32,000 nucleotides of DNA. Source: Candidatus Saccharimonadota bacterium. Its GTDB lineage: Bacteria; Patescibacteriota; Saccharimonadia; Saccharimonadales; Saccharimonadaceae. Positions within the stretch are counted from its first letter, which is position 1, and every line of letters begins with the position of its first letter. The notes beneath the pieces were generated by a model. That model worked only from the letters and a program-made list of their open reading frames with translations. It was not told the origin of the DNA and ran no database searches. The stretch covers positions 360,001-392,000 of the forward strand of contig CP060232.1 of the NCBI GenBank assembly GCA_023898645.1, read 5' to 3'. The position numbers and the translations under genes are program-made. This document shows positions 18,812 to 31,631 of the stretch, in pieces.

Positions 18812-18836
18812 AATTTCACCACCGTTACTGTACAAT
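18808..18836 (+). promoter_or_regulatory. Candidate promoter for tRNA-Gly
   Basis: TTGAAA (18808-18813, overlapping the upstream stop codon), 17-nt spacer, TACAAT (18831-18836). This is about 15 nt before the tRNA 5' end. Confidence 0.5.
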
Positions 18837-18851
18837 ATTTTGAGTAAATGC

Positions 18852-18927
18852 GCGGGTGTAGCTCAGTTGTTAGAGCGCTTCCTTGCCAAGGAAGAGGTCG
18901 AGAGTTAGAGTCTCTTCACCCGCACCA
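18852..18927 (+). tRNA. tRNA-Gly(GCC), CCA encoded, with noncanonical D loop and T loop
   Basis: Acceptor GCGGGTG/CACCCGC and anticodon loop TTGCCAA (GCC). The D loop is AGTTGTTA and the T loop is TTAGAGT, where AGTTGGTA and TTCGAGT would be usual. Confidence 0.85.
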
Positions 18928-20526
18928 TTTTAGACTTAGAGCCTCTTCGGAGGCTTTTTGTATCTGTTGAGGCAAGGTTCTAACCATTTCTAGCTCGGTA
19001 CGTATGCTTTTAGCGTTCTTAGCCACCGGAATTAGCCACTTATTTGCCTCTATCTCCAGTACACCGTTATTCAATACAGGATTTTGTCCGATTGCCAGCA
19101 ACACCTCTCTTTTAATGGCAATGTCACCATCCCTAAACTTGTCGCTAGCATAGGTTAGCTTATCGAATGTTTGCTCGACTATCTCGTACCAATTCTTTAT
19201 GCGGTGACTGACATCTGCCTGTTCTTCTTGTAGGCGTACCAGGTCGGTCTTAAGAGCGGCGCTTTTGGTTTTATACTCTTCATCGTCAATTAGCGCTCTA
19301 GTTGCCATGTCTAGCAGCTTATCTAGCTGTGACTGAGTACTAGCAATGGCTTTATTCTGCGCATCCTGTACACCGTTGCGCTCATCAATTTCTTTACTGG
19401 CGAATTCGCGTAGGGCATCCATAGTCCACTCGTACATCTTTGGATGCAATTCGTAGCTATCCATTAACTCAAGTAGCATTGCCCATAACTTTTCTTCGCG
19501 CACGTTGATAGACTTTTGCGTACAATCTTTGTTTTTGCCGGTACAATGATAATAAATATACTCGTGACGGTTACCATTTTTCTGTATCTTTATTTTGTGT
19601 TCCGCAGTAATACTTAGGCCGCAGGCGGCGCATCGTATAAATCCTCTTAATGCAAACTGCTTGGTTGATGCTAAACGCGGGAAGCCTTTGTCGCCTAGTA
19701 GCACCTGCACCCTGTCATACTCCTCTTGTGTAATCATTGCGGGGAAATCTGCATCATAAAACTTTTCGGGGGCATATGGGTCGGGCACAAGTCCGGCATA
19801 CCGCACATTGCGCAGTATGTTATACAAGCTGCTACGTGATATGGTGCGGTTGCCTTTGCGTCGGGTGTTTGGCGTTTGGTAGCCCCATTCCTCATTCATA
19901 ATCTTACGAATAGACTGCACGCTATATTCACCGGTCAAGAATAAATCGAACGCCTTGCGGATAAGGTCAAATCGCTCGGGGTCTTTTACGACTATGGCTT
20001 GGCCTCTGCCGCCACCCGAAACCTTGATACGCTCATTTAGGTAACCGGCCGGAGCTATGCCGGTCAGCCCACCCTGCTGCCGTTTCGTGGCATTGCCGCG
20101 TTTTACATCCTTGCTTAGCTTGGCGGAGAAGTATTGTGACTGACTCATGGTCATTTGTAGCATCATCATGCTCTCTGGAGTGTTATCAAAACTAAAGCCA
20201 GAGGCAAACCTGAGGTCTTTAATCTTACCTTGCCGTATGCGCCATGTTATTGAACTTGCATCTACTTCATTGCGGCTCAGTCGGTCAGGGTGCCACGCAA
20301 TAATTCCATCAATTTTGCCCGCATCCACCATAGCGAGCAGCTCTTTGAACAGTGGACGCTTATCCGGCTCGAAAGCACTTTTACTCTCCGGTTCAATCCA
20401 GGCAACAATATTAAGGTCACCGAAACGCTCTTTAATTTTGTCCCGCTGGCTATCCAGTGAAAGTACTTGTCGCTCGGCTTCCTCGGTTGATTTACGCGTG
20501 TATACCGCATATCGTAGATTTTCCAT
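18916..20526 (-). CDS. Large serine recombinase (resolvase domain, recombinase domain, Zn ribbon and coiled coil)
   Basis: N-terminus YAVYTRKSTEE with the catalytic Ser in an R-x-S-T context, followed by IIAWHPDRLSR. Cys cluster CAACG...YYHCTGKNKDC and a C-terminal coiled coil. AAGGAGA RBS precedes ATG 20526. The last 12 nt overlap tRNA-Gly. Confidence 0.85.
   Translation of the reverse strand: MENLRYAVYTRKSTEEAERQVLSLDSQRDKIKERFGDLNIVAWIEPESKSAFEPDKRPLFKELLAMVDAGKIDGIIAWHPDRLSRNEVDASSITWRIRQGKIKDLRFASGFSFDNTPESMMMLQMTMSQSQYFSAKLSKDVKRGNATKRQQGGLTGIAPAGYLNERIKVSGGGRGQAIVVKDPERFDLIRKAFDLFLTGEYSVQSIRKIMNEEWGYQTPNTRRKGNRTISRSSLYNILRNVRYAGLVPDPYAPEKFYDADFPAMITQEEYDRVQVLLGDKGFPRLASTKQFALRGFIRCAACGLSITAEHKIKIQKNGNRHEYIYYHCTGKNKDCTQKSINVREEKLWAMLLELMDSYELHPKMYEWTMDALREFASKEIDERNGVQDAQNKAIASTQSQLDKLLDMATRALIDDEEYKTKSAALKTDLVRLQEEQADVSHRIKNWYEIVEQTFDKLTYASDKFRDGDIAIKREVLLAIGQNPVLNNGVLEIEANKWLIPVAKNAKSIRTELEMVRTLPQQIQKASEEALSLKWCG
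18941..18960 (+). terminator. Rho-independent terminator after tRNA-Gly
   Basis: GCCTC-TTCG-GAGGC followed by TTTTTG. It lies inside the antisense 3' end of the recombinase ORF. Confidence 0.7.
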
Positions 20527-20546
20527 TTATCTCCTTGAACCAAAAT

Positions 20547-20682
20547 GGACGGCAGGTTGTTGACACAGGCCACAGCGCAAAGCTATCTCCTGATACCTGC
20601 CGCCCATAAATGGTCGGGAAATAAAAACACCTTGCGCGTTTTTTGTAGCTTGTGTCAACGCTACTATTATACCACTTATTAA
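20547..20682 (-). promoter_or_regulatory. Recombinase promoter and leader of about 140 nt with interleaved inverted repeats
   Basis: Minus-strand extended -10 TGgTATAAT (20682-20674). Inverted repeat B: GGACGGCAGGT (20547-20557) with ACCTGCCGCCC (20594-20604), 10 of 11 positions paired. Inverted repeat A: GTTGACACA (20559-20567) with TGTGTCAAC (20651-20659), 9 of 9 paired. Confidence 0.45.
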
Positions 20683-20696
20683 GGCGGGTGGGCGAC

Positions 20697-22139
20697 TTAC
20701 CATTTGCCGCCCAGATTTATGCGTGTTCCACCCACACCACCATCCCCTATATTGTCTGTAATAAGGTTGTTTTGTTCGTCCAAGAACACCTTAATATAGA
20801 TATGCATACTACGTTTGTCACCGATTTCGGGCTGTTTCTGAACGATAAAGCCACTATTTTCTAGCAATGGCAGTATCTGCTTACGCAAACGCTCATCGTC
20901 CATCAGAGCATTTTCGGTGCGCAAATAGTAGTTACTCAAGTCCTGGCGACTTAGACCGATAAAACCTCTGTCCATATTAGCCTGCTCGCGCCGGTGCTTA
21001 TCGTTCCATGCTGGCAATATGTATTTCTTGTAGAAGTGCAGAACGGCCGGAGGCACGTTGAGGTTTTGGCTCGTTGCGATAGCGCCCCATAGTCTAAAAG
21101 CCTGGTCTATGTCTGACTGACTGGCGACAATCATTCCGTCGGGCTGTTTGCGAAACCATACGTTTAGCAGTGCGATTGCTTTAATTAGCTCCATCAGGTG
21201 TCGGATATCGCGTGCATGACGCGGCTTTAGCCTCGGAAAAGAATTCCTGAAACGCCTCTCGATGGCTTCCTTGCTAGGCACTACAATGCTATCAACGTGC
21301 TCAAAGCGTATAGCAATAATACGCTGCATCAGTTCTGCGCGCGCGGGCTGTTCGTCTAGCCACTGCTTAAATGCCTTGCGGTCAGCGCCGCGCTGCACCT
21401 CCAAGTGAACCGCGCTGCTTAACTTAGCTTCGGTAACTTCTGGGCTAAGCAGTAAAAACCGTGTAGCTTCTTGCTCATCTAGTAGCATATTTGCCGAACA
21501 AAAAACTGTTGCCGGAAAGCCACGCAGTATGATGTGCTCGGTGCGGTTGGCGCCCTTGTTCTTATTGGTCATTTTGTAATGCAAGTCACGGTCATCTTTG
21601 GATAGCAGCGCCCGTAGCTTCTCTTGTAGTAGCGGGTTGGGCTGTTCATATAGGAGTAAAATCTTGCGCTCAAGCGACACAACTTTAGCGCCACGCTCAA
21701 CATCGTCCACGCCGCGACTATAGAAGAATGAAGTCGGTGACGCCCCGCTCAGCGGTACTTTATCTACTTCGGGGAATAGCTTGGCAATTTCACTCGTTAG
21801 ATAAGTTTTGCCGGAGCTGCTTTGAGCATTAAAACTGATGTTAATTTGGTCTTCCGAAGTGTAAGCGCTCAGCATACCCAAAAAGCCAATAGCTTTATTC
21901 TCGTTATCGTCTTTGATGGTAAGTGATAACACTTCCATCACATCATCAACCGTCATCTCGCTAAATTGCGCAACATCTATGGCGGCGTTAATCTCGGCAA
22001 GTTCTGCCTCTAGCTCACGCTCCCGCGCTATTACTGGGTCTTCTTTTTGCTCTACTTTTTTGGATTTTAGCTGTTCGTATTTTGGCACCGGTGCCGGTGC
22101 ATTCGCGATTTCACTCACTGGTTTTAATCTCCTCGTCAT
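20697..22139 (-). CDS. P-loop NTPase, probable SF3-helicase-like replication initiator of the island
   Basis: Walker A NAQSSSGKTY, Walker-B-like KILLLYEQ, and an FCSAN block resembling SF3 motif C. The N-terminus is charged and coiled, and the C-terminus looks like a winged helix. The family is inferred from motifs only. Confidence 0.55.
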   Translation of the reverse strand: MTRRLKPVSEIANAPAPVPKYEQLKSKKVEQKEDPVIARERELEAELAEINAAIDVAQFSEMTVDDVMEVLSLTIKDDNENKAIGFLGMLSAYTSEDQINISFNAQSSSGKTYLTSEIAKLFPEVDKVPLSGASPTSFFYSRGVDDVERGAKVVSLERKILLLYEQPNPLLQEKLRALLSKDDRDLHYKMTNKNKGANRTEHIILRGFPATVFCSANMLLDEQEATRFLLLSPEVTEAKLSSAVHLEVQRGADRKAFKQWLDEQPARAELMQRIIAIRFEHVDSIVVPSKEAIERRFRNSFPRLKPRHARDIRHLMELIKAIALLNVWFRKQPDGMIVASQSDIDQAFRLWGAIATSQNLNVPPAVLHFYKKYILPAWNDKHRREQANMDRGFIGLSRQDLSNYYLRTENALMDDERLRKQILPLLENSGFIVQKQPEIGDKRSMHIYIKVFLDEQNNLITDNIGDGGVGGTRINLGGKW

Positions 22140-22290
22140 TACTTAATTGCTGTTGAATATGAGCCTTAGCAAGTACGAACCGCATAATTGACAGGCCAGC
22201 CTCTTGAGCTTGTTCGTCGGTGACATCTAGCCCATGTAGCTCAAGCAGGAGTGCCCGCAATTCTTGTATCCGTTCATTACTAAGGCGCAT
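22111..22290 (-). CDS. Small hypothetical protein (59 aa), below the ORF-track cutoff
   Basis: My hand translation gives MRLSNERIQELRALLLELHGLDVTDEQAQEAGLSIMRFVLAKAHIQQQLSNDEEIKTSE. Its end overlaps the start of the P-loop gene by 29 nt, which suggests translational coupling. No clear RBS. Confidence 0.4.
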   Translation of the reverse strand: MRLSNERIQELRALLLELHGLDVTDEQAQEAGLSIMRFVLAKAHIQQQLSNDEEIKTSE

Positions 22291-22298
22291 TTTTAGGC

Positions 22299-22493
22299 CT
22301 ATTTATTCGGTAGCAGATTACTAGTCCGCTTTAGCATTTCTAGGTTTTTGTAGTATGTGCGTGCTCGCACAGTAAGAGTGTTTTGTTGGTACCTTTTGAC
22401 ACACCTCGTCATGCGCTCGGTACTTCCGAATAGAAAATATGCCCGCCCATTACTGTGCTGTATTTCATGTAACCGGATGCGATGATTTAACAA
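22299..22493 (-). CDS. Small protein resembling the DUF5659 family (phage and candidate-phyla-associated)
   Basis: The DIGLAAALLNHRIRLHEI...GRAYFLF...TLTVRARTYYKNLEMLK pattern matches my recollection of DUF5659. The frame is open upstream to 22577, and AAGGAGG (22556-22550) sits 8 nt before a CTG at 22541. The true start is therefore uncertain: TTG 22493 or further upstream. Confidence 0.5.
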   Translation of the reverse strand: MLNHRIRLHEIQHSNGRAYFLFGSTERMTRCVKRYQQNTLTVRARTYYKNLEMLKRTSNLLPNK

Positions 22494-22562
22494 CGCCGCA
22501 GCCAGCCCTATATCATTAACTTTTCTAATTTTGGTAGCCAGTTTATTGCCCTCCTTGATGGG

Positions 22563-22596
22563 TGTAAAAATACCCGCTTAGTTTGTGCGGGTATTT
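22563..22596 (-). terminator. Rho-independent terminator after the 283-aa gene
   Basis: On the minus strand, AAATACCCGC-(9 nt)-GCGGGTATTT is followed by TT, so that with the stem's terminal TTT the T-run reads TTTTT. Confidence 0.7.
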
Positions 22597-22624
22597 GTAT
22601 CACTAGGGGCAATCTGAAAACTTT

Positions 22625-23476
22625 TCAGACGGATTTCAGATAGGATTTGTCTATGTAGTATTTAACCTCGTCATAAATTATCAGCTTTGGCACGCCAGTC
22701 ACCTCATTTATCTTGCGATTTATTTCATTCAGATGATTTTTTGCCAGCTTACGCTGTCGGGCATCGAATTTATCCGCCCTAACAGATGTAATTGAACGCA
22801 GCAGCACACCATCGCGCAGGGTATTGACAGATTTGAAGAGCTTACGCATTGCACCACCCTGAGTAGGCTCTTTGGCTGCTTTACCACGTCTATTTTTTTG
22901 CCCAATAATCACTATCTCGCACCCGCCAAAGTACAGTGTGCCCGTATCCGCATCATAGCTTCGTATAGTAATTGAATGCGGCTCAGCGCCTAGCTCTATG
23001 ACTGGCGGTGCTGCCGCAACAATGTCGGTCGCGGCGGTGGGGGTCACGCTTTCATCGTGCCTAGCTAGCTGTTCTTTGAGCTTCTCGTCGGTTGCGACAA
23101 ATTCCGCATATGGTATCTTCCTCACAGTGCTCACTCCAGCGGCAATTTCCTGCTTCTCATAATGCACGCTCACTAATTCGACAGCGTGCTCCACTAGCGC
23201 CATGCTAAGTATCACCTCAAAGAACTTCGGAACGCCATCAATTTCGCCCCTCACCGCTTGGTGATAGCCGAAGCCATCTGCGTACAGTTGTTTCATGACT
23301 GCCACTAGACGGTCACGTTGAACTTCGTAACTAGGCACAGCCTCTGGCGTGCCCGTAGTTAATCTGCCCTGCACGAACGCATTAAGATATTCCGCCAATT
23401 CCTTGTCGGTTGTTTTGCTAGCTATCGCGCGCTGCGTCGCCGCAAATACATCATCAATATTTCGGTATGTTTGCAT
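22625..23476 (-). CDS. Hypothetical protein (283 aa); the C-terminal region may be a winged-helix DNA-binding domain
   Basis: Clean ORF with its own terminator. The C-terminal 90 aa (LYFGGCEIVI...RKLAKNHLNEINRKINEVTGVPKLI...YYID) loosely resembles an OmpR/PhoB-type effector domain. I recognise no motifs in the N-terminal half. Confidence 0.55.
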   Translation of the reverse strand: MQTYRNIDDVFAATQRAIASKTTDKELAEYLNAFVQGRLTTGTPEAVPSYEVQRDRLVAVMKQLYADGFGYHQAVRGEIDGVPKFFEVILSMALVEHAVELVSVHYEKQEIAAGVSTVRKIPYAEFVATDEKLKEQLARHDESVTPTAATDIVAAAPPVIELGAEPHSITIRSYDADTGTLYFGGCEIVIIGQKNRRGKAAKEPTQGGAMRKLFKSVNTLRDGVLLRSITSVRADKFDARQRKLAKNHLNEINRKINEVTGVPKLIIYDEVKYYIDKSYLKSV

Positions 23477-23544
23477 TTAGCTCCTGTGTCCACACCCAAT
23501 CCCTATATTTTCTGCTAACCGATGTGCAACGGCAAGCACAAGAG

Positions 23545-23592
23545 GTTACATAACCATAGACACTATGCATGTAACAGGGGTGGTGTTATAAT
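23545..23592 (+). promoter_or_regulatory. Promoter of the R-M operon leader with a flanking inverted repeat
   Basis: Extended -10 TGtTATAAT (23584-23592). Inverted repeat GTTACAT (23545-23551) with ATGTAAC (23569-23575) spans the -35 zone and may be an operator. Confidence 0.45.
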
Positions 23593-23598
23593 TAGCGA

Positions 23599-23730
23599 GT
23601 CTTACTATCAAAACAAGTCAGAACGCATTTCATTGCGGTTCGCCACGAAAAGCGGCACCGCATAAGCATTTTGGCGAAAGCTGACTTGTGAATGGTAGTA
23701 AGACACCTTGCGGTGTCGCTTTTTATTTTC
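23599..23730 (+). ncRNA. Structured leader or small RNA of about 130 nt ending in an intrinsic terminator, upstream of the R-M operon
   Basis: P1: 23599-23607 pairs with 23696-23704 (9 bp). P2: 23614-23621 pairs with 23681-23688 (8 bp). Inner helix TTCGCC/GGCGAA (23639-44 with 23673-78), or alternatively TGCGGT/ACCGCA. Terminator GACACC-TTGC-GGTGTC (23702-23717) followed by GCTTTTTATTTT. Confidence 0.5.
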
Positions 23731-23756
23731 GCCGCAATTTACGGAAAGGAGCAGGA

Positions 23757-24089
23757 ATGACAACCTGTTACATAATGGACTGCGGCAGAAAGTTTGACGA
23801 CGGCGACAAGCATCTTGAGCATGACGTCTGGCAAGTGGGCTACTATAACGAAGGTCGCTGGTACTGTTCGCAAAAGCACCTCAAACAAGCCACCAGGCGC
23901 AACGGCTGGCTAATGTTTTTCATGGCAATTTGCGCAATGGTCGGTTTATTTTTCTTGCAATTCCTTATTTATCCGTTCCTTGACAAACATTACTTCGAGC
24001 TAGCTAGTAATACATGGGCATTCTATGCGGCACTGGCCATATGCCCGCTGAGTGCTTGGGTTTTCTACAAACTAGAAAAGTTTGGTTAA
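23757..24089 (+). CDS. Membrane-anchored Zn-ribbon-like protein (111 aa)
   Basis: ATG 23757 follows GGAAAGGAG. The N-terminus has CYIMDC...(30 aa)...YCSQKH (C-x4-C plus C-x3-H) followed by 2-3 TM helices. The GTG 23688 start in the ORF track lies inside the leader structure and is unlikely. Confidence 0.6.
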   Translation: MTTCYIMDCGRKFDDGDKHLEHDVWQVGYYNEGRWYCSQKHLKQATRRNGWLMFFMAICAMVGLFFLQFLIYPFLDKHYFELASNTWAFYAALAICPLSAWVFYKLEKFG

Positions 24090-24203
24090 GTTGACGGCTA
24101 TTATCGGTGGTGAATTACTTGAAAAACCTGTTACAATAGGTTCTGTAATCTTTACAATAAAAAAACAAAAACGGGTTGGGTAAAAAATAGCCAACCAACC
24201 ATT

Positions 24204-25787
24204 ATGAATGATACGAAAAAAGAACAAGAGCGCGCTAAATTGCACGCAACCATATGGAAAATTGCCAACGACTTACGAGGCAGTGTAGATGGCTGGGACT
24301 TCAAGCAGTATGTGCTGGGCATGTTGCTATATCGTTTTATTTCCGAAAACTTGACCAACTACATCAATGTACAAGAGCTACGTGACCCGAGTAATCCTCG
24401 CGACTTTAATTACGCATCACTAAGTGACGACTTCGCAGAACGCGGCCGCACAGAAACTGTTAAAGACAAGGGCTTTTTCATACTACCTAGTGAACTTTTC
24501 GAGAACGTCCGCAAGCGCGCAAAGACCGACGACAATCTCAACGAAACTCTGTCTGGCATTTTCCGTAACATAGAAAATTCCGCCAAGGGTGCTGATAGCG
24601 AAGACGACATAAAGGGTTTGTTTGATGACATTGACGTCAATAGCAACAAACTCGGCTCATCTGTAGACAGGCGCAATAAGCAGCTCATTCGTTTACTGGA
24701 TGCAGTTGGCGATTTGCAGTTAGGCAGCTACAAAGATAATACAATCGATGCCTTTGGCGACGCGTATGAGTTCCTAATGGGGATGTACGCTAGTAATGCC
24801 GGTAAGTCCGGCGGTGAATACTACACGCCCCAGGAGGTTAGTGAGTTACTGGCGCGTATCACTGTTGTTGGCAAAAAAGAGGTTAATAAAGTCTACGACC
24901 CCGCTGTGGGTTCCGGCTCATTGCTTCTTCAGTTTGCGAAGATACTGGGCAAAGATAATGTCCGCAAAGGTTTCTACGGCCAAGAGATTAACCTAACCAC
25001 CTACAACCTATGTCGTATTAACATGATTTTGCACGACATCAACTATACCGAATTCAACATCGCGCACGGCGACACCCTTGTAGAACCAAGCGAGGAACAT
25101 TGGCAGGAAGAGCCGTTCGAGGCAATTGTATCTAATCCGCCATATTCAATTCACTGGGCAGGTGACAGCGACCCACTACTTATTAACGACCCACGCTTTA
25201 GTCCAGCGGGCGTCCTAGCACCAAAGAGCAAGGCAGACCTCGCATTTACTATGCATATGCTTAAATGGCTAGCGACTACTGGCACGGCAGCTATCGTTGA
25301 ATTTCCTGGTGTTCTCTACCGAGGTGGTGCAGAAGCTAAAATTCGTAAATACCTCATAGATAACAACTTTGTTGATGCTGTCATACAGCTTCCTCCTGAC
25401 TTATTCTTTGGAACTGGCATAGCTACCTGCATTCTAGTACTCAAAAAGAGCAAGCACGACAATGCTACGCTTTTCATTGACGCTAGCGCCGAATTTGTGC
25501 GAGGTGGTAACAAGAATAAGCTCAATGAAGCCAATCGCAATAAAATTCTGGAAGCATACACCAATCGCGTTGATGTAGACCACTTTGCAAAGCTTGTGAA
25601 AAATGGCGATATTGCCACGAACGATTACAATATTGCGGTCAGTAGTTATGTTGAACGAGAAGATACACGAGAAATTGTGAATATCGCTGAACTCAACAAT
25701 GACATAAGCCAGATTGTCGCCAGGCAAAGCAAGCTACGCGCAGAGATTGATGCGATTGTGTCAGACATTGAGGGTGGTCATGAGTAA
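24204..25787 (+). CDS. hsdM: Type I restriction-modification methyltransferase subunit HsdM
   Basis: The N-terminal HsdM domain begins LHATIWKIANDLRG. AdoMet motif VYDPAVGSGSLL and catalytic motif IV NPPY (SNPPYS). 527 aa. Confidence 0.9.
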   Translation: MNDTKKEQERAKLHATIWKIANDLRGSVDGWDFKQYVLGMLLYRFISENLTNYINVQELRDPSNPRDFNYASLSDDFAERGRTETVKDKGFFILPSELFENVRKRAKTDDNLNETLSGIFRNIENSAKGADSEDDIKGLFDDIDVNSNKLGSSVDRRNKQLIRLLDAVGDLQLGSYKDNTIDAFGDAYEFLMGMYASNAGKSGGEYYTPQEVSELLARITVVGKKEVNKVYDPAVGSGSLLLQFAKILGKDNVRKGFYGQEINLTTYNLCRINMILHDINYTEFNIAHGDTLVEPSEEHWQEEPFEAIVSNPPYSIHWAGDSDPLLINDPRFSPAGVLAPKSKADLAFTMHMLKWLATTGTAAIVEFPGVLYRGGAEAKIRKYLIDNNFVDAVIQLPPDLFFGTGIATCILVLKKSKHDNATLFIDASAEFVRGGNKNKLNEANRNKILEAYTNRVDVDHFAKLVKNGDIATNDYNIAVSSYVEREDTREIVNIAELNNDISQIVARQSKLRAEIDAIVSDIEGGHE

Positions 25788-26424
25788 GATTGACGACCTC
25801 ATTAAGCAGTTTTGTCCTGACGGTGTGGACTTTATGGAACTAGGTGAGCTACTTGACTATGAACAGCCTGGCAGATACATAGTCAGTAGCACAAATTATA
25901 GTGATGAGCATTCCACGCCGGTTCTTACAGCTGGTCAGAGTTTTATACTGGGTTACACCAACGAAGAGCACGGTATTTACATGGCCAGTTCGGAAAATCC
26001 TGTGATTATATTTGATGATTTTACTACCTCATTCCACTGGGTAGATTTTAACTTCAAGGTGAAATCATCGGCAATGAAAATGCTACGCCTAAAACCTGAC
26101 AATCCTATTGATTTTCGTTTTGCATACTACGCAATGCGATGCATAAACTATAGCCCCACCGACCATGCGCGTCATTGGATTTCTCAATACTCAAAGTTTA
26201 CGATACCTGCACCTCCTCGCGAAGTGCAGCAAGAAATAGTGAAAACACTGGACAAGTTCACACAATTAGAAGCGGAGCTAGAAGCGGAGCTAGAAGCGGA
26301 GCTAGAAGCGGAGCTAGAAGCGAGAAAGAAGCAATACCAATACTATCGCAATCAACTTTTGACATTTGATTCATCGGGGGGGGGCGAAGTGGAAGACCCT
26401 TGGCGAGGTGGCGATGTACTCTAA
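25780..26424 (+). CDS. hsdS: HsdS specificity subunit, N-terminal half (TRD1 plus central conserved helix); frame ends after the G8 tract
   Basis: ATG 25780 overlaps the hsdM stop (ATGAGTAA). TRD1 is followed by LDKFTQ(LEAE)n...RKKQYQYYRNQLLTF. The frame then passes through G8 (26376-26383) and stops at 26422-26424. Confidence 0.85.
   Translation: MSKIDDLIKQFCPDGVDFMELGELLDYEQPGRYIVSSTNYSDEHSTPVLTAGQSFILGYTNEEHGIYMASSENPVIIFDDFTTSFHWVDFNFKVKSSAMKMLRLKPDNPIDFRFAYYAMRCINYSPTDHARHWISQYSKFTIPAPPREVQQEIVKTLDKFTQLEAELEAELEAELEAELEARKKQYQYYRNQLLTFDSSGGGEVEDPWRGGDVL
26266..26321 (+). repeat. 12-bp tandem repeat (AGAAGCGGAGCT) x4.6 inside hsdS
   Basis: Four perfect units at 26267-26314 plus a 7-nt partial unit. 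Together they encode LEAELEAELEAELEAELEA in the central helix. Confidence 0.95.
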
Positions 26425-26956
26425 AGCTAGAATTGAAGCCGAACACCTCAACGATGATAATTACGTTGGGGTTGATAACATTTTGCAAAACCGACAAGGT
26501 AAAACCGCGTCCAGCCATGTACCTAGCTCTGGAAATCTTACACGATTTGATAGAGGTGATGTACTTCTTGGAAACATTCGACCATACTTGAAAAAGATAT
26601 GGCACGCTGACAAAACTGGCGGTACAAACGGTGATGTTTTGGTAATAAAGTTGACAGATGATAGCGTCACGCCAAGATACCTGTACCAAGTTCTATCAGA
26701 TGACAGATTTTTCGACTCCGAAATGAAGTATGCAAAAGGCGCAAAGATGCCACGTGGCGACAAGAATTCGATTATGAAATATCCTGTACCCGTGCCGTCA
26801 ATTCCAAAGCAAAATCATATAGTTTCAGTTTTAGATAAATTTGACGCTTTAGTGCATGATATCACTGAGGGCTTGCCTGCCGAGATAACCGCGCGAAGAA
26901 AACAGTATGAGCATTATCGTAACAAGCTACTGTCATTTACGGAGCTACCTGCATGA
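26366..26956 (+). CDS. hsdS: HsdS C-terminal half (TRD2 plus distal conserved helix), in the +1 frame relative to the N-terminal half
   Basis: KWKTLGEVAMYSKARIE is a typical TRD start, and the sequence ends ARRKQYEHYRNKLLSF. The stop overlaps the hsdR ATG (ATGA). Only weak internal starts are available (TTG 26366, ATG 26414). Confidence 0.8.
   Translation: MIHRGGAKWKTLGEVAMYSKARIEAEHLNDDNYVGVDNILQNRQGKTASSHVPSSGNLTRFDRGDVLLGNIRPYLKKIWHADKTGGTNGDVLVIKLTDDSVTPRYLYQVLSDDRFFDSEMKYAKGAKMPRGDKNSIMKYPVPVPSIPKQNHIVSVLDKFDALVHDITEGLPAEITARRKQYEHYRNKLLSFTELPA
26376..26383 (+). repeat. G8 homopolymer at the TRD1/TRD2 junction of hsdS
   Basis: tcatcGGGGGGGGcgaag, counted directly from the sequence. Confidence 0.95.
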
Positions 26957-29900
26957 ACAAGTACAGCATGGTGGCGGAAAACCCGCATAGTACAGTTGTT
27001 GCCGAGTTTATACCCGCCGCGCGCCGCGCTAGCGATTATCAAAGTGAAGCTGAGCTAGAGCAGGCATTGATTGAACAGCTGCAAAGGCAAGCATACGAGT
27101 ACCTGCGTATCTCCAGCGAAACCGACCTCATTACTAATCTGCGCGCTCAATTAGAAAAACTCAACGATTACCAATTTACCGACACTGAGTGGGAACAGTT
27201 CTTCAAGCAAAACCTCGCCAATCCTAGCGAAAGCATAGAGGAAAAGACTACTACTATTCAGGAAGACCATGTTAAAAACCTAACGCGCGACGATGGTACG
27301 GTTAAAAATATTAGATTGCTCGACAAGGTAAGCATCCACAATAACAGCCTGCAAGTCATCAATCAGTACGAAATTGAGGGCGCACGAGCAAATCGTTACG
27401 ATGTGACAGTATTAGTTAATGGACTACCTCTAGTTCATATAGAACTAAAACGGCGTGGCGTGGACATCAAAGAGGCGTTTAACCAAATAAACCGTTACCA
27501 GCGCGATAGCTTCTGGGCAGGTAGTGGGCTATTCGAGTACGTGCAGTTATTTGTCATTAGCAACGGAACGTACACAAAGTATTACAGCAACACCACTCGT
27601 AACCAGCACGTTAAAGACGGTGGCAATATCAATAAAAAAGGCAAAAAGACCAGCAACAGCTATGAGTTTACAAGTTGGTGGGCAGACGCTCGCAACAAGC
27701 CAATTACTGATTTGACCGATTTTGTTGCAACGTTTTTTGCAAAACATTCACTACTGAATGTGATTACTAAATACTGCGTATTTACAAGCGACCGTTTACT
27801 GCTGGCGATGCGGCCATACCAGATTGTAGCAACCGAGCGTATTCTTAACCGCGTAGAGGTTAGTACTAACTATAAAAAGTTAGGCACCATAGAGGCGGGT
27901 GGCTACGTTTGGCACACCACCGGTTCAGGTAAAACGCTGACCAGTTTCAAGACCGCTCAGCTAGCAAGCAAGCTAGAAGACGTAGAAAAAGTACTATTCG
28001 TGGTAGACCGCAAAGACTTGGACTACCAGACAATGAAAGAGTACGACAAGTTCGAAAAAGGCGCCGCGAACAGCAACACAAGCACCGCGAAACTCAAAAA
28101 ACAGTTGGAAGACCCGAACGCTCGCATCATTATCACGACTATCCAAAAGCTAGATAAGTTCATCAAAAAGAATGAGGGGCACCGCATTTTTGACGGACAC
28201 ATCGTTTTAATTTTTGACGAATGTCACCGCAGTCAGTTTGGCGATATGCATCACTCCATTACCAAGAGCTTCAAGAATTACCACCTTTTTGGTTTTACGG
28301 GCACTCCTATTTTTCCGCAGAATATATCAAGTGGTGGACGCGCCGACCTTAAGACCACCGAGCAAGCCTTTGGCGAAAAGTTGCACACATACACCATTGT
28401 TGACGCCATTACCGATAAGAACGTTTTGCCATTCCGCATTGACTACATCAGTACTGTACGTGAAGCAGAAGATATAGACGACGAACAGGTGCGTAGCATT
28501 GATACTGAGGCAATCTTAGGAGCGCCGGAACGCATTAGCAAGGTCGTGCAATATATTCGCGACCACTTCGACCAGAAGACTAAGCGGAACAGCACCTACA
28601 TGTTTACCGGTGCGCTGCAAAACATTCACGAGGTTGCCACCGCGCGCGACAGGCACGCCATCGAAGAAATAAAGCAGCGTATTCGACTTAGCGGCTTTAA
28701 CTCTATTTTCGCTGTCAGTTCTATAGAAACGGCAAAAAAGTACTACGCCGAATTCAAGCGCCAGCAAGCAGAGGCTCCAGAGGCGTTACGGCTCAAAGTG
28801 GCTATTATTTATAGCTACGGCGCCAACGAAGACGAAGAACTTTTTGACGGGCTAGAAGACGAGAACAGTGAGGGTACCGAGGGGCTAGATAGTAGTTCAC
28901 GCGACTTTCTTGATAACGCAATTCGCGATTACAACCAGATGTTTGCAACTAGCTATGATACATCAGCCGACAACTTCCAGAATTATTACAAGGACGTGTC
29001 GCTACGTATGAAAAACCGCGAAATCGACCTGCTTATTGTGGTTAACATGTTCCTTACTGGCTTTGATGCAACGACCCTCAATACGCTGTGGGTGGACAAA
29101 AAGTTGCGGTCACACGGTTTGCTGCAAGCATATTCTCGCACCAATCGTATCCTAAACTCAGTTAAAACTTTTGGTAATATCGTGAGTTTCCGTAACCTTG
29201 AAAAAGCCACCAATGACGCCTTGGCATTGTTTGGTGACAAAGAAGCCGGTGGCATTGTGCTGCTCAAGAGCTATAACGATTACTACAATGGCTACGACGA
29301 CAACGGTAAACATCAGCGCGGATACGTGGAGCTGGTTACCGAGCTAATGGAGCGGTTCCCTGTAGGTCAACAAATCATTGGTGAGCAGGCTCAGAAAGAG
29401 TTTATTAAGCTATACGGGGGCATCCTGCGCGTGCGTAACATCCTGAGTACGTTCGACGATTTTGAGGGCAATGAAATTCTTTCTGCCCGTGATGTTCAAG
29501 ACTACCACAGTATGTATATCAATTTGTATAACGAGTTCCGCAAGGGTACCGATGCCGACAAAGAAAACGTCAATGACGATGTTGTGTTTGAGATGGAGCT
29601 GATTAAGCAGGTAGAAATAAACATTGATTATATCCTTGAACTGATACGCAAGTACCACGCCGGAAACCAAGAAGACAAAGAACTACTCGTTGACATCAAT
29701 AAGGCTGTTGATAGTAGCGTTGAGCTACGCAACAAGAAAGACTTGATAGAACAATTCATTACCTCACTCAACGTCAATTCATCGGTAGATGAAGACTGGC
29801 GTAAATTCGTCGATACTAAAAAGGTAGAAGAACTTAACCGCATTATCCAGGAAGAGGGATTAGACCACGATGAAACCTATCGCTTTGTAGACAATGCATT

Positions 29901-30072
29901 CCGCGATGGCTCGCTGCAATCCACCGGCACGGCAATTGCTAAAATTCTGCCGCCCGTATCACGCTTTTCAGCAGATAACTCACGCGGCAAAAAGCGCGAA
30001 ACGGTGCTCGACAAGCTGACCAACTTCTTTAATAAATTCTTTGATATATCTAGCGGCAAAATGGAGGACTAG
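26953..30072 (+). CDS. hsdR: Type I restriction enzyme R subunit HsdR (type IC-like, 1039 aa)
   Basis: N-terminal nuclease region (VLVNGLPLVHIELKRRG), SF2 helicase motifs (HTTGSGKT, DECHRSQ, FTGTP) and a C-terminal helical domain. The length matches EcoR124I-type HsdR. Confidence 0.9.
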   Translation: MNKYSMVAENPHSTVVAEFIPAARRASDYQSEAELEQALIEQLQRQAYEYLRISSETDLITNLRAQLEKLNDYQFTDTEWEQFFKQNLANPSESIEEKTTTIQEDHVKNLTRDDGTVKNIRLLDKVSIHNNSLQVINQYEIEGARANRYDVTVLVNGLPLVHIELKRRGVDIKEAFNQINRYQRDSFWAGSGLFEYVQLFVISNGTYTKYYSNTTRNQHVKDGGNINKKGKKTSNSYEFTSWWADARNKPITDLTDFVATFFAKHSLLNVITKYCVFTSDRLLLAMRPYQIVATERILNRVEVSTNYKKLGTIEAGGYVWHTTGSGKTLTSFKTAQLASKLEDVEKVLFVVDRKDLDYQTMKEYDKFEKGAANSNTSTAKLKKQLEDPNARIIITTIQKLDKFIKKNEGHRIFDGHIVLIFDECHRSQFGDMHHSITKSFKNYHLFGFTGTPIFPQNISSGGRADLKTTEQAFGEKLHTYTIVDAITDKNVLPFRIDYISTVREAEDIDDEQVRSIDTEAILGAPERISKVVQYIRDHFDQKTKRNSTYMFTGALQNIHEVATARDRHAIEEIKQRIRLSGFNSIFAVSSIETAKKYYAEFKRQQAEAPEALRLKVAIIYSYGANEDEELFDGLEDENSEGTEGLDSSSRDFLDNAIRDYNQMFATSYDTSADNFQNYYKDVSLRMKNREIDLLIVVNMFLTGFDATTLNTLWVDKKLRSHGLLQAYSRTNRILNSVKTFGNIVSFRNLEKATNDALALFGDKEAGGIVLLKSYNDYYNGYDDNGKHQRGYVELVTELMERFPVGQQIIGEQAQKEFIKLYGGILRVRNILSTFDDFEGNEILSARDVQDYHSMYINLYNEFRKGTDADKENVNDDVVFEMELIKQVEINIDYILELIRKYHAGNQEDKELLVDINKAVDSSVELRNKKDLIEQFITSLNVNSSVDEDWRKFVDTKKVEELNRIIQEEGLDHDETYRFVDNAFRDGSLQSTGTAIAKILPPVSRFSADNSRGKKRETVLDKLTNFFNKFFDISSGKMED

Positions 30073-30077
30073 CAAAT

Positions 30078-30680
30078 ATGTCAAAAGGAATAATCTACTT
30101 AATGTCCACCGCCGTATCTGGCCTGGTGAAGATTGGCAAAACTGGCACGGTCAATTATCCAGAACGAATGCGCTTCCTGGAGGCTAATGGATACTACAAC
30201 GTTGCGGGCTTACGACGCTATTTCGCTATCGAGCTTGAAGATTATGACGATAAAGAAAGTCTACTGCACGAAATTTTTAGCAAACACCAAGTTGGTACCA
30301 GCGAGCTTTTTGCGTTAGACCAAGACCTAGTACGTCAATTGTTGCTATCATTTGATGGTAAAGTTATCTATCCTGAAAAAATCAACAAGGAAAAAGAGTT
30401 CGACGAAGTGGCGACCGCCCGCAAGCAAGGTGCGTTATTCAGCTTTTACCGTAAAGGTTTGCAAGACGGTGACGAAATCAACTTTATATCTGATAAATCT
30501 ATTATCGCAACCGTCAGCGGAGAGCGAGAAGTTGAGTACGGCGGTCAAGTATGGAAGTTGTCACCACTAACATACAAGATTTTCGAGGATAAGGGGCAGC
30601 TAAACAGTAGCGGCGCCTATCAGGGTGCAAACTATTGGCAATTCAATAATCACAAACTAAAAGATTTGCCTGATAAGTAG
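30078..30680 (+). CDS. GIY-YIG-like T5orf172 domain protein with a DUF4357-like C-terminal domain
   Basis: The N-terminus GIIYLMS...GLVKIGKT...ERMRFL...ELF fits the T5orf172 pattern. The C-terminus EINF...ATV...EVEYGGQVWKLSPL...YWQFNNHKLKDL fits DUF4357. It starts 5 nt after the hsdR stop, with GGAGGA upstream. Confidence 0.7.
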   Translation: MSKGIIYLMSTAVSGLVKIGKTGTVNYPERMRFLEANGYYNVAGLRRYFAIELEDYDDKESLLHEIFSKHQVGTSELFALDQDLVRQLLLSFDGKVIYPEKINKEKEFDEVATARKQGALFSFYRKGLQDGDEINFISDKSIIATVSGEREVEYGGQVWKLSPLTYKIFEDKGQLNSSGAYQGANYWQFNNHKLKDLPDK

Positions 30681-30888
30681 TCGGTTCTAACCTATATTTC
30701 AAATTTTCCGAAAAATTTTTGGCAACGACATATCGACACATGTGGTGAGGGTGTCACTGCCTACCCCCCCGCCCCTTGTCAACTATGTAGGCAACGGTGG
30801 TGGGAGTGCGCGAACCGCCACGCCGGAGGCCAGTTACCTCTGTTCAGTCTATTGATGTAATCTGTTTTAAGCTATAGAATAAGTGAGT

Positions 30889-30957
30889 AGCGCGGTTCTG
30901 ACTTCTGCCAGAACGGTGCACCAATTAAAATATCGAGGCTTGCCCTCGGTTTTTTAA
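30889..30957 (+). terminator. Two-hairpin 3' element ending in a rho-independent terminator
   Basis: First hairpin: GCGCGGTTCTG-(8 nt)-CAGAACGGTGC (30889-30918; 11-bp stem with 1 mismatch and 1 G-U pair). Second: CGAGG-CTTGC-CCTCG (30934-30948) followed by GTTTTTT. Confidence 0.6.
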
Positions 30958-31049
30958 TTGGTTTGTGTCTATGTGTTCTAACTCTCGACCTCGACCCGAA
31001 AACTATAGTCGAGCATTTTGGGCTTATGCACTTACAAATATACGAATGT

Positions 31050-31078
31050 TTGCATTTTTGCGAATGGTTGTGTATACT
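31050..31078 (+). promoter_or_regulatory. Sigma70-type promoter of the ArsR-like gene (leaderless geometry)
   Basis: TTGCAT (31050-31055), 17-nt spacer, TATACT (31073-31078) preceded by TGtg. ATG 31086 starts 7 nt after the -10 hexamer. Confidence 0.55.
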
Positions 31079-31085
31079 CAAAAAT

Positions 31086-31631
31086 ATGAAAATGACAGAC
31101 TTGCTACTTCACCCCGTACGAATCCGTATCCTCCAAGCTTTTTTAGGGGAGCGTGAGCTAACGACTGCTCAGCTTGCGGCAGAAATGGGTGATATTCCTC
31201 CGGGCAGGATTTATCGACATGTAACTTTGCTAGCCGATGCGGGAGTTTTGGAAGTTAAGTCCGAACGGCGAGTGCGTGGCGCAGTTGAGCGTTCATATGG
31301 CTTGGGGATCAAGACCAAACCTGATGTAGCAGAAATAAAAAAAATGACCCGTGATGAACATCTGCAGGCTTTTACGGCATATGTAACCGGACTGCTAGCA
31401 AGTTATGAACGGTATCTTGATAGTGACAAGCCGGATCTGGTACGTGATGGCGTTGGTTATTCTATGAATGCATTGTGGCTGAGTGATGACGAGTATGCTG
31501 ATTTCGTAAAAGATATCGCAGCCGTCGTAACGAAACGGACAAAAAATAAACCAACAGCAGAGCGAAAGCGTCGCCTGATAGCGAGCGCATTTATGCCACT
31601 GCTTAACAACAAGGAGGGATCGAATGACTGA
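31086..31631 (+). CDS. ArsR-family-like winged-helix transcriptional regulator
   Basis: MKMTDLLLHPVRIRILQAFLGERELTTAQLAAEMGDIPPGRIYRHVTLLADAGVL is a typical HTH_20/ArsR N-terminus. The ORF-track start at 30963 lies upstream of the promoter and is unlikely. Confidence 0.7.
   Translation: MKMTDLLLHPVRIRILQAFLGERELTTAQLAAEMGDIPPGRIYRHVTLLADAGVLEVKSERRVRGAVERSYGLGIKTKPDVAEIKKMTRDEHLQAFTAYVTGLLASYERYLDSDKPDLVRDGVGYSMNALWLSDDEYADFVKDIAAVVTKRTKNKPTAERKRRLIASAFMPLLNNKEGSND

Follow-up and report, generated by a model that had tools for sequence, protein, structure and literature searches.

The window (the whole 32-kb stretch of DNA that was analysed) carries a block of accessory-looking genes between tRNA-Gly(GCC) and an ArsR-like gene, and raises the question of whether this block is a mobile element and, if so, by what means it would be inserted and maintained. 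A first, sequence-only reading had proposed an island at tRNA-Gly with its right end at 30692, and expected alleles in which tRNA-Gly is directly followed by the ArsR-like gene. We could locate such an empty site in L012, a contig from a sister sample, in which tRNA-Gly, the host terminator and the ArsR-like gene stand in direct succession, and which aligns to 16145–18927 and 30918–32000 of the window at 100% identity, the two alignments overlapping by 6 nt. The proposed island is real and its gene positions hold with minor corrections, but its right end lies at 30923, and the 231 nt beyond the first estimate contain part of the recombinase gene, displaced from the rest (Table 1).

The 11,996-bp insertion is bordered on both sides by a 6-bp direct repeat, GCACCA, made up of the last two acceptor-stem nucleotides, the discriminator base and the CCA of tRNA-Gly(GCC); by convention, the left core copy was counted as host. 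Since the element brings the same six bases, the tRNA stays intact, its sequence being unchanged by the insertion and the same in L012. A related element in L026 is bordered by the identical 6 nt, and inspection of the att sites revealed no clear inverted-repeat symmetry. The occupied site is found in the NCBI genome as well as in two independent contigs, of which L001 (10.7 kb) spans the junction between the tRNA and the large serine recombinase (LSR) gene and L011 (30.8 kb) the right junction, both at 100% identity to the window. Because the samples of one study contain both the empty and the occupied allele, with flanks that are 100% identical, gain or loss was very recent. The suggested comparison of composition also set the island apart, with tetranucleotide correlations of r = 0.50–0.57 between island and flank versus r = 0.83–0.87 between flank and flank, at nearly equal GC content (45.8% in the island and 47.4% in the flanks). 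The host is a metagenome-assembled genome (MAG) of Patescibacteria with a reduced genome (1.13-Mb contig), as had been surmised. From allele comparison we could establish site-specific integration by the LSR at the 3' end of tRNA-Gly(GCC), so that 18928–30923 is a real mobile element, and we hold it to be likely that it is the integrated copy of a small plasmid-like element inserted by the LSR and maintained by an MCM-like ATPase.

Table 1. Features of the element and its borders (positions in the window).
Feature	Position	Strand	Evidence or remark
Host tRNA-Gly(GCC), integration target	18852..18927	+	ARAGORN; Rfam tRNA 71 bits
LSR, integrated form, 536 aa	18916..20526	-	Pfam PF00239, PF07508, PF13408; GenBank USN96912.1
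attL core GCACCA	18922..18927	.	6-nt overlap between two L012 alignments
Mobile element, 11,996 bp	18928..30923	.	absent from L012; present in L001, L011; distinct tetranucleotide usage
Terminator-like hairpin then T-run	18938..18957	+	terminator scan
MCM-like AAA+ ATPase, 480 aa, C-terminal helical domain	20697..22139	-	AF2 model; Foldseek
Conserved 59-aa protein	22111..22290	-	overlaps MCM-like gene start
DUF5659-like ORF, 64 aa	22299..22493	-	Pfam PF18903, E 2.6e-5, profile positions 21-71 of 75
Fast-evolving 283-aa 'orphan', first gene of conserved module	22625..23476	-	jackhmmer, 31 loci
Divergent intergenic region	23477..23756	.	repeat finder: nested inverted repeats, 3-4 copies of CCTGTTACAT
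110-aa ORF, N-terminus Cys/His-rich, C-terminus hydrophobic	23757..24089	+	called in L001
hsdM, type I methyltransferase	24204..25787	+	TIGR00497 749 bits; Pfam N6_Mtase, HsdM_N
hsdS, two ORFs (25780-26424, 26366-26956) through frameshift	25780..26956	+	each half matches Methylase_S
12-nt tandem repeat, encodes (LEAE)n, HsdS central conserved region	26264..26320	+	repeat finder; translation
G9 homopolymer, cause of hsdS frameshift	26376..26384	+	candidate phase-variation tract
hsdR, EcoR124-type	26953..30072	+	Pfam HSDR_N, SWI2_SNF2, T1R_D3-like, EcoR124_C; TIGR00348; PADLOC REase_I 1181 bits
T5orf172 / GIY-YIG-like candidate defence gene	30078..30680	+	Pfam T5orf172; PADLOC PDC-S57, E 9e-57
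Displaced LSR gene 3' end, encodes W-C-TVLAEVRTALLTYSIA + stop	30867..30923	-	conserved in-frame tail
attR core GCACCA	30918..30923	.	L012 overlap alignment
Host terminator	30932..30950	+	terminator scan; directly 3' of tRNA-Gly in empty site L012
ArsR/HTH_20 gene	true start ~31086		position corrected

The recombinase comprises Resolvase, Recombinase and Zn_ribbon_recom domains and matches the PHROG integrase phrog_95 (E 2e-72). In its integrated form, the final four codons (W-C-G-stop) correspond to the tRNA 3' end read in antisense, as visible from the C-terminal alignment, and a conserved 16-aa tail, TVLAEVRTALLTYSIA, is encoded at the far end of the element, in frame with the CCA codon, where it becomes part of the LSR frame only once the circle is excised. 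On integration, the gene is cut 16 codons ahead of its stop, and the 551-aa free form gives way to the 536-aa chromosomal protein. These alignments place attP inside the LSR gene, with integration swapping the 16-aa tail for tRNA-antisense codons. In 19 related loci, the far end likewise holds a conserved in-frame tail, and the tail is intact in circular relatives. Compared to L026, the tail codons show five synonymous differences and one non-synonymous difference, a pattern consistent with coding constraint; the motif GAAGTYAGAAC is nearly invariant within the tail DNA, whose conservation may partly reflect a binding arm of the recombinase and not translation alone. Among LSR homologues the tail is intact in 5 of 126, and those inspected among the remainder end in tRNA-antisense peptides.

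The LSR inserted the element by site-specific recombination with the exchange point within GCACCA of tRNA-Gly(GCC), and in the mechanism that we propose, the tail swap would tell the free from the integrated state, for example via altered stability or directionality of the recombinase. A recombination directionality factor was not identified for the element, and its circular junction (attP) was not found among near-identical LSR variants of 552–555 aa, which are integrated forms or lie at a non-tRNA junction. The terminator-like hairpin close to the tRNA consists of element DNA within the LSR codons for KASEEAL; peptide and hairpin are both conserved in L002, L022, L026 and L058, and this element-borne structure inside the LSR coding sequence would serve as terminator for the tRNA. 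A 58-aa ORF at 20527–20703 is probably not a gene, as it falls in a spacer of about 150 nt between the LSR and MCM-like genes that was found in the family members compared.

The label SF3-like, initially given to the 480-aa protein, found no support in any test run and was set aside, since the MCM-like AAA+ fold of the model fits better. With the AF2 model (pLDDT 87), best Foldseek matches were obtained for MCM (E 2e-8) and other AAA+ ATPases, further ones being viral primase-helicases and SSV proteins. Walker A reads AQSSSGKT, with E165 and R227 strictly conserved; Walker B departs from the usual form (hhhhYE), and the protein lacks the MCM N-terminal domain. About a third of the more than 950 homologues carry an N-terminal fusion to a primase-like Toprim domain, and close homologues carry Pfam PF27228 ('MTBMA_p00010_2nd'). 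We regard the protein as a putative replicative helicase or initiator, which would maintain the excised circle with the help of small conserved proteins. Homologues of the 59-aa protein occupy the equivalent position in 48 of 84 loci. The DUF5659 match is weak (24.4 bits versus a cut-off of 23.6) for an ORF that is N-terminally truncated relative to the profile, full-length DUF5659 genes standing at the equivalent position in L005, L007 and L105. For the 283-aa orphan, which shares 16–24% identity with the same-position proteins of L002, L005 and L007, searches with Pfam, PHROGs, PADLOC and NCBIfam profiles gave no family match, nor did profile searches for the 110-aa ORF. The divergent intergenic region is a candidate for a control region or for the origin, which would probably lie there, at 23.5–23.8 kb.

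The module of orphan, DUF5659, small ORF, MCM-like and LSR genes recurs across 84 related loci, the LSR gene immediately following the MCM-like gene in 61 of the 69 that could be judged. A tRNA is found at the LSR ORF end in 36 of 45 loci, overlapping or abutting in 34 of the 45 and always convergent, and fourteen tRNA species are targeted across the family. The 15 elements with both ends identified measure 7.8–12.4 kb and, in all but one, have cores 6–10 nt long that begin at CCA. Cargo is variable and mostly defence (type I and III R-M, STAND NTPases, HEPN, PIN), and in the second element, that of L026, the same core is found together with an end segment of 86% identity, the host flanks being unrelated. 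The element is no isolated case, its two core genes (MCM-like and LSR) having many hundreds of homologues in public data. L029 closes through a 127-nt terminal overlap into a 6,984-bp circle; L105 and L106, which stem from two sequencing runs, are permuted versions of one circle of 7,010 bp with overlaps of 30 nt; and L057 and L058 join into a circle of 8,773 bp. These three circular relatives (7.0–8.8 kb) keep an intact LSR, ARAGORN detected no tRNA on L029, L105 or the L057–L058 circle, and their predicted genes are unlike host core genes; in principle, circular contigs could be tandem arrays. The earlier proposal of a self-replicating and integrating element is supported by such relatives, whose contigs close into small circles and whose recombinase is intact. 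The family is apparently large and undescribed, living as a small circle or inserted in tRNA genes.

Capsid, relaxase and secretion genes are not present in the element, and natural transformation and helper-dependent transfer are candidates for its spread. A phage satellite or helper-dependent island with P4-, PICI- or PLE-like excision and replication, which moves only by helper-phage packaging, would account for the P4-like layout (integrase, primase-helicase-type replication gene, small regulators, tRNA defence hotspot), the satellite-like size of 7–12 kb and the finding of no self-transfer genes. We consider it unlikely, since PHROGs matches are limited to the integrase and a homing-endonuclease-like protein and include no genes for capsid hijack, packaging or heads, the MCM-like gene has no relative in the 2.9 million viral contigs of IMG/VR, and three data sets yielded circles as replicons in their own right. 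Alternatively, the locus could be an integrative mobilizable element (IME) that depends for its movement on a conjugation-type secretion system whose genes lie elsewhere in Patescibacteria genomes; serine-recombinase IMEs are already known (PMC5704250), and a preprint reports for Patescibacteria a T4SS with kinship to the conjugation machinery of monoderms (10.1101/2025.01.22.634366). Neither the element ORFs nor the circular relatives revealed a relaxase, an oriT-like feature or a coupling protein, rendering this reading very unlikely.

The integrated LSR is without its conserved tail, the attP junction of the window element was not found, the DUF5659 gene looks truncated and hsdS is frameshifted, all of which would fit an immobile domesticated defence island, in which integration destroyed the LSR C-terminus, so that the window copy cannot excise and is a plain chromosomal R-M island. 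We give this only a small chance, since the coexisting alleles point to very recent change, the other core genes are all intact and tail loss at integration is a family-wide design rather than decay. That the island was mis-joined during assembly might be suspected from a metagenome-assembled source whose short-read contigs break within the island at 26293–26296, but is exceedingly improbable, as both junctions are reproduced by the independent contigs and the break sits in a 60-nt tandem repeat that exceeds the assembler k-mer.

Considered as an LSR-inserted mobile element with an MCM-like ATPase, the island shares features with several known systems. Thermococcales TKV/pTN3-like elements and fuselloviruses are plasmid- or virus-like, encode a helicase of the MCM family and use tRNA genes as integration sites, and in SSV-type systems the integrase gene contains attP and is therefore split upon integration. 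While these features recur here, those systems display tyrosine integrases and a large N-/C-terminal split, whereas the present element swaps only a 16-aa tail, resides in a bacterial host and encodes a helicase without the MCM N-terminal domain. In cluster G/N/P mycobacteriophages, which use a tyrosine integrase and show integration-dependent immunity, attP lies within the repressor coding sequence near its 3' end; the C-terminus of the regulator is thus altered and the integrated state signalled, and the removed repressor tail was found by experiment to be a degradation tag. Here, attP likewise lies near the 3' end of a coding sequence and integration changes the C-terminus, but it is the serine recombinase itself and not a repressor that is split, and the tail role is putative. 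The term integration-dependent immunity appears in PMC9635641.

With classical large serine integrases (phiC31, Bxb1, A118, SPbeta, SCCmec Ccr, XisF) the LSR shares the three-domain architecture and the element ends without long direct repeats, and NCBIfam indicates weak similarity to XisF and CcrA/B/C. In the sources consulted, serine-integrase sites are described inside or between protein genes, and the tRNA and tmRNA sites documented there belong to tyrosine integrases (PMC10654092; PMC5704250). In contrast, this clade, although its enzyme type is not usually linked to tRNA genes, uses the CCA end of at least 14 tRNA species as its target and has attP in its own gene. P4-like phage satellites and pipolins, described as defence-hotspot islands (PMC11551731), are also small, located at tRNA 3' ends and equipped with an integrase, their own replication protein, regulators and an exchangeable defence block, but have tyrosine recombinases and longer direct repeats in place of an LSR. 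Replication involves an SF3/D5-type helicase (primase-helicase) in P4, pPolB in pipolins and the MCM-like protein here, and P4 has capsid-hijack genes, whereas no genes for helper exploitation were seen in the element.

Its cargo includes the type IC R-M operon that had been proposed, hsdM, hsdS and hsdR occupying 24204–30072 on the plus strand with an HsdR carrying EcoR124_C. The suggestion that this system is diversifiable agrees with two features of hsdS, a frameshifting G9 tract and an in-frame repeat of 12 nt. The two hsdS halves match complementary halves of PADLOC Specificity_I profiles, and with one G deleted a continuous 391-aa HsdS results. G9 is the sole G/C run of at least 8 in the 32-kb window, and the Illumina-based contig L011 matches the window exactly across it. 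Judged from these tracts, hsdS would probably be switchable at G9 and retunable through the 12-nt repeat. In the type IC systems EcoR124I/II, the central HsdS repeat determines how long the spacer within the recognition site is. The EcoR124_C domain of HsdR and a tandem 12-nt (4-aa) central repeat of HsdS are common to both, the repeat being LEAE in 4–5 copies here and TAEL in 2–3 copies there; the present operon differs further in the G9 frameshift tract in hsdS and in the T5orf172 gene that follows hsdR.

An empty counterpart of the island was found in L012, a 5,004-nt Logan contig from run SRR14234111, which we reached by using the 778-aa flank protein as query and finding an essentially identical 777-aa variant. 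In L012, the flank-protein gene is followed directly by the HTH_20 gene. Positions 1-2783 align to window 16145-18927 and positions 2778-3860 to window 30918-32000, in both cases at 100% identity. Since the two alignments overlap by 6 nt, the element measures 11,996 bp with GCACCA at both sides. These six bases, which form the shared overlap, are the last two acceptor-stem bases, the discriminator and the CCA of tRNA-Gly. The order at the empty site is tRNA-Gly, its own terminator and the ArsR-like gene, and the occupied arrangement is seen additionally in the independent contigs L001 and L011 from SRR14234121. The insertion is thus polymorphic around a defined core. The sequence-only reading had placed an island at 18916-30692 and proposed to look for a site in which tRNA-Gly directly precedes the ArsR-like gene, which is what L012 contains. 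Its observation could be confirmed and its interpretation is supported: existence and gene list of the island stand, while the right boundary and the 'SF3' label had to be corrected. The composition, which that reading had proposed to compare, also sets the island apart, with tetranucleotide correlations of r = 0.50-0.57 between island and flanks compared to 0.83-0.87 between the flanks, at near-equal GC content (45.8% in the island, 47.4% in the flanks). The assumed reduced-genome symbiont as host agrees with the MAG contig of 1,134,346 bp, on which GenBank holds the 480-aa protein and the large serine recombinase (LSR) as MAG proteins, and with the nearest relatives of the 778-aa flank protein, which come from Saccharimonadales MAGs.

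Further searches for the empty site returned only relatives of 34-36% identity without synteny among species representatives (genome contigs, 778-aa query). In exact look-up of the ArsR-like protein, one start form was unrecorded and the other was present only on an occupied contig, and the relatives of 61-66% identity (L016-L019) were too diverged or cut off at the insertion site. Three short-read contigs of other runs (L013-L015) end inside tRNA-Gly (window 18881-18888), just before the insertion point; such ends would fit an assembly-graph branch with occupied and empty alleles coexisting. The core gene 5' of tRNA-Gly has homologues at 28-70% identity in related MAGs, some of them much longer, and no match in Pfam or NCBIfam. 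A perfect 16-nt inverted repeat links the tRNA with a site upstream of the ArsR-like gene, and in the empty site its arms lie 71 nt apart around the terminator, giving a palindrome of about 100 nt. As an att feature this repeat was rejected, since its two arms belong to the host and occur in the empty site as well.

Features of the window at and within the inserted element
Feature	Window position	Strand	Remarks
778-aa core gene	16475-18811		
tRNA-Gly(GCC)	18852-18927		ARAGORN
16-nt inverted repeat	18894-18909 / 30977-30992		tRNA-Gly T-arm region / upstream of ArsR-like gene
LSR, 536 aa	18916-20526	(-)	Resolvase, Recombinase, Zn_ribbon_recom domains
Element	18928-30923		11,996 bp
Hairpin and T-run	18938-18957		within LSR codons KASEEAL
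VRT-coding repeat (GTYAGAACC)	19000-19008 / 30894-30902		EMVRTLP of LSR C-terminus / EVRTALL of displaced tail
MCM-like protein, 480 aa	20697-22139	(-)	
59-aa ORF			between 480-aa protein and DUF5659-like ORF
DUF5659-like ORF			weak, N-terminally truncated DUF5659 match
283-aa orphan			no matches in profile libraries
Motif CCTGTTACAT and variants	23538-24148	both	3-4 copies
Nested inverted repeats, several	23599-23738		
110-aa ORF			Cys-rich, hydrophobic
hsdM, hsdS, hsdR			HsdR with EcoR124_C domain
12-nt repeat in hsdS	26264-26320		(LEAE)x4-5
G9 tract in hsdS	26376-26384		
T5orf172 protein, 200 aa			PADLOC candidate defence family PDC-S57, E 9e-57
LSR tail	30867-30923		displaced LSR 3' end, with the 16-aa tail
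Host terminator	30932-30950		
ArsR/HTH_20 gene	real start near 31086		
attL junction			...CACCCGCACCATTTTAGAC...
attR junction			...GAACGGTGCACCAATTAAAA...
attB junction			...CACCCGCACCAATTAAAA... (reconstructed)
attP junction			...GAACGGTGCACCATTTTAGAC... (reconstructed)

By gene content the element is neither conjugative (ICE) nor a prophage. Pfam, PHROGs, NCBIfam and PADLOC scans of its ORFs gave no relaxase, coupling protein or type IV secretion genes. Capsid, portal, terminase, tail and lysis genes were not seen with PHROGs on the non-R-M ORFs, which gave only an integrase and a homing-endonuclease-like family. Features of an integrative plasmid, namely a site-specific integrase and precise chromosomal insertion, are present. 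The copies of motif CCTGTTACAT surround a divergent promoter region, and together with the nested inverted repeats they may be operators or origin iterons.

The LSR carries a catalytic domain (PF00239, E 2.8e-22) with S13 of 'YTRKST' invariant in the alignment, PF07508 and PF13408 C-terminal to it, and a match to the integrase family phrog_95 (E 2e-72). It thereby combines the catalytic serine domain, the Recombinase and zinc-ribbon domains, and the precise insertion with short att identity of a serine integrase. Between attL and attR the identity is 6 bp at a precise empty site, with no longer tRNA repeat at the far ends, and the crossover can be placed only to within GCACCA. The possibility that the far end repeats a long part of the tRNA directly was considered and rejected, as no such repeat is present in the window or in the related loci L002, L005 and L007, the true repeat being just 6 nt. 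Scanning the reconstructed attP and attB for dyad symmetry gave 10-12 of 24 positions and no clear dyad.

LSR reading frames enter the tRNA, and their end residues K/E-W-x-G are the antisense of NCCA and the acceptor stem. A clue to the original end of the gene comes from L026, a related element of 77% DNA identity whose tRNA-Gly(GCC) target has unrelated host DNA around it. The match of its far end to window 30858-30924 has 86% identity and begins precisely with TGGTGC, and the far end of the window element, read on the LSR strand, extends the frame as W-C-TVLAEVRTALLTYSIA-stop. The two tails differ by five synonymous codons and one non-synonymous codon. In-frame tails were found at the far end of 19 loci, in elements at Gly, Trp, Met, Arg or Thr tRNAs, with the consensus W-x-x-[VI][LM]-x-[EQ]-V-R-T-x-L-L-x-Y-S. 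Second codon positions of the tail are the most conserved (0.21 differences per site, compared to 0.47 at first and 0.53 at third positions). An intact tail is present in 5 of 126 LSR homologues, and the others inspected end in tRNA-antisense peptides, e.g. WCGRRESNS.... At the level of sequence, the LSR gene is split, with attP lying inside it. Since the tail continues the LSR frame at the far end, the free-form LSR of the window element would be 551 aa long, and integration would swap its last 16 residues to yield the 536-aa form.

We infer a function for this tail. A tentative and rather unlikely proposal is that the tail across attP would be a built-in state sensor, the full-length 551-aa LSR being made only by the free circle. 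If this is true, and if tailed and tail-less LSR differ in activity, stability or direction, integration and excision could be controlled without, or beside, a separate directionality factor. In the same proposal, a crossover placed in the universal CCA end would let the family change tRNA species by altering the flanking recognition arms only. Directly 3' of tRNA-Gly, a hairpin with a T-run lies within the LSR codons and is conserved in relatives; this element hairpin would replace the host terminator, which is displaced to the far side of the insertion. It should be noted that the VRT peptide is encoded twice, in the LSR at a distance of about 57 nt from the attL core and again in the displaced tail, giving a direct repeat on both sides of attP. 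The repeat could have arisen by chance or by an old duplication, or could serve as a binding motif.

The same architecture is found family-wide. Exact look-up showed the module of orphan, DUF5659, small ORF, MCM-like protein and LSR to be common to L002, L005 and L007, where the LSR 3' end meets a convergent tRNA (Trp in L002, Gln in L005 and L007) or is separated from it by no more than about 150 nt. For a broader survey 80 metagenome loci were fetched and 84 loci scored by script. The LSR gene directly follows the MCM-like gene on its 3' side in 61 of 69 judgeable loci, and the LSR ORF ends at a tRNA in 36 of 45, with the tRNA overlapping or abutting the ORF in 34 and always convergent. Fourteen tRNA species are used, with isoacceptors counted apart (Trp, Gln, Met, His, Gly, Tyr, Thr, Arg, Lys, Leu). 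Elements with both ends identified (n = 15) span 7.8-12.4 kb and share cores of 6-10 nt, always from CCA, apart from L038 with only 3 nt. The cargo varies per element and consists mostly of defence genes: type I R-M with Abi_C, type III R-M, HTH-STAND NTPases, AAA_15 with an SF1-helicase nuclease, DUF4365-TPR-PIN, HEPN_Apea and a large methyltransferase. A scan of IMG/VR returned no relatives of the family.

Single loci of the survey show additional features. In L059 a group I intron (Rfam RF00028, 73.6 bits; 13168-13358, minus strand) sits exactly at the LSR 3' end, the place of the tRNA elsewhere, and probably indicates that the target is a tRNA with an intron, which ARAGORN overlooked. The far ends of the elements in L053 (119, 665) and L059 (3239, 3891) each hold two tail or attR-like copies 550-650 nt apart, which suggests that previous insertions left remnants, or that tandem arrays formed, at one tRNA. 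In L098 two LOOT RNA matches (Rfam RF03000, 70-72 bits; 7333-7455 and 19397-19514, both minus strand) bracket a Toprim-MCM/LSR module without a tRNA at the LSR end.

The 480-aa protein had been labelled SF3-like, which was not borne out: it has no match in Pfam (at E <= 0.01, MCM profile included), PHROGs, NCBIfam, PADLOC or PDB sequences, and no SF3 protein is among its top 50 PDB folds. An AlphaFold2 model built on 60 homologues (pLDDT 87, pTM 0.85) was compared by Foldseek with the PDB, where eukaryotic and archaeal MCM subunits came first (E 2e-8 to about 1e-8, TM about 0.40), followed by RavA/MoxR, RuvB and Mg-chelatase. In BFVD, unnamed viral proteins (E 2e-16), fusellovirus ORFs, MoxR-like ATPases and Toprim or primase-helicases were matched. 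Walker A (AQSSSGKT), the invariant E165 at the Walker B position (ILLLYE, no DE) and a 'TRF' with invariant R227, resembling the SRF arginine finger, fit an MCM-like AAA+ core. The N-terminal OB-fold/zinc domain of MCM is absent from the model, in which residues 35-93 are helical only. Because this domain and a Pfam MCM match are lacking, we name the protein MCM-like and not MCM. It has more than 950 homologues, nearly all unnamed, with the named sources being Patescibacteria or Saccharibacteria; some carry Pfam PF27228 ('MTBMA_p00010_2nd') and many an N-terminal Toprim fusion. Given these fusions and the place beside the integrase, a replicative role is the best inference.

Relatives of the element also occur in circular form. 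The ends of L029 overlap by 127 nt, closing a circle of 6,984 bp with an intact tailed LSR. L105 and L106, from two sequencing runs, each measure 7,040 nt, and their ends overlap by 30 nt. One is a circular permutation of the other at 100% identity, and the 7,010-bp circle encodes the orphan, DUF5659, a 60-aa ORF, the MCM-like protein and the tailed LSR, along with three cargo ORFs. A third circle, of 8,773 bp, is formed by L057 and L058, which come from two samples. ARAGORN found no tRNA on L029, L105 or the L057/L058 circle, and the predicted genes there are unlike host core genes. Circles are the simplest reading of these contigs, with tandem arrays as the alternative. Taking them as circles, their occurrence as separate contigs, the MCM-like fold and the Toprim fusions together suggest autonomous replication by the element's own protein; any route of transfer is likewise presumptive. 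For the window's own element, the attP junction was not found among near-identical LSR proteins. LSR variants of 552-555 aa were rejected as an excised form, since they read into tRNA antisense or, in P0306, into non-tRNA sequence. In L100 (3840-3990) and L101, an LSR from the 90%-identity cluster of the window LSR is joined after TGGTGC to non-tRNA sequence GCCTACTGGATAGTAGG..., which is followed by a PLDc_2 gene. This junction might reflect integration at a secondary site, an adjacent island or another attP arm. L082 (13,474 nt, 123-nt terminal overlap) closes to 13,351 bp with an 879-aa fused MCM-like protein and no adjacent LSR, and may represent a family member that is solely a plasmid.

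In function, the element can be likened to an integrative plasmid or a satellite-type defence island, such as P4-like satellites, pipolins and archaeal MCM/integrase elements. It differs from these in its large serine recombinase, in targeting the terminal CCA region of many tRNAs and in the C-terminus of its own LSR, which is rewritten on integration. In PMC10654092 and PMC5704250, sites in tRNA and tmRNA genes are reported for tyrosine integrases, and sites of serine integrases are located within or between protein genes. A serine-integrase clade at tRNA CCA ends, its own gene rewritten by integration, is a departure from the usual picture. Literature searches on Patescibacteria serine recombinase, DUF5659 and related terms did not find a description of the family. 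The closest report describes a genomic island of Patescibacteria that carries a complete type I R-M system, with recombinase, integrase and tRNA unmentioned (PMC12455944).

Patescibacteria (CPR), a group with tiny genomes that accounts for much of bacterial diversity, are very difficult to modify genetically. The family could be considered a natural, compact vector family for them, with a tRNA 3'-end site, a recombinase with many target variants, a candidate replicon and free circles of 7-9 kb, and the clade a source of orthogonal integrases whose targets are conserved and predictable. The family also shows defence systems moving between streamlined genomes, which are often thought poor in defence. 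The element is of clear interest for both CPR biology and recombinase engineering.

The R-M cargo of the window element shows the sequence features of type I family C (EcoR124-like), comprising the HsdR C-terminus (PF12008, E 8.6e-70; HsdR also matches TIGR00348), HsdM (TIGR00497), two Methylase_S halves with their target-recognition domains in HsdS and a 4-aa repeat, a predicted assignment to a family originally defined by subunit complementation or antibody cross-reaction with EcoR124I. A frameshift at a G9 tract divides hsdS into two ORFs, and no other long G/C homopolymer occurs in the 32-kb window. With one G removed, the frame is continuous and encodes a 391-aa HsdS that has both target-recognition domains. 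A Nanopore error at this tract is unlikely, as the short-read contig L011 matches the window exactly across the region. Upstream of it, a 12-nt repeat encodes the LEAE units in the central conserved region of HsdS. A contig break at 26293-26296 was considered as a sign of heterogeneity and rejected, since the 60-nt tandem repeat located there exceeds the assembler k-mer. The spacer of the EcoR124I/II recognition sequence depends on how many copies of such a repeat are present, and type IC HsdS proteins that are truncated can function as homodimers. Length polymorphism was not observed. Phase variation of hsdS may occur, with the G9 tract and the repeat as candidates for switching or retuning R-M specificity.
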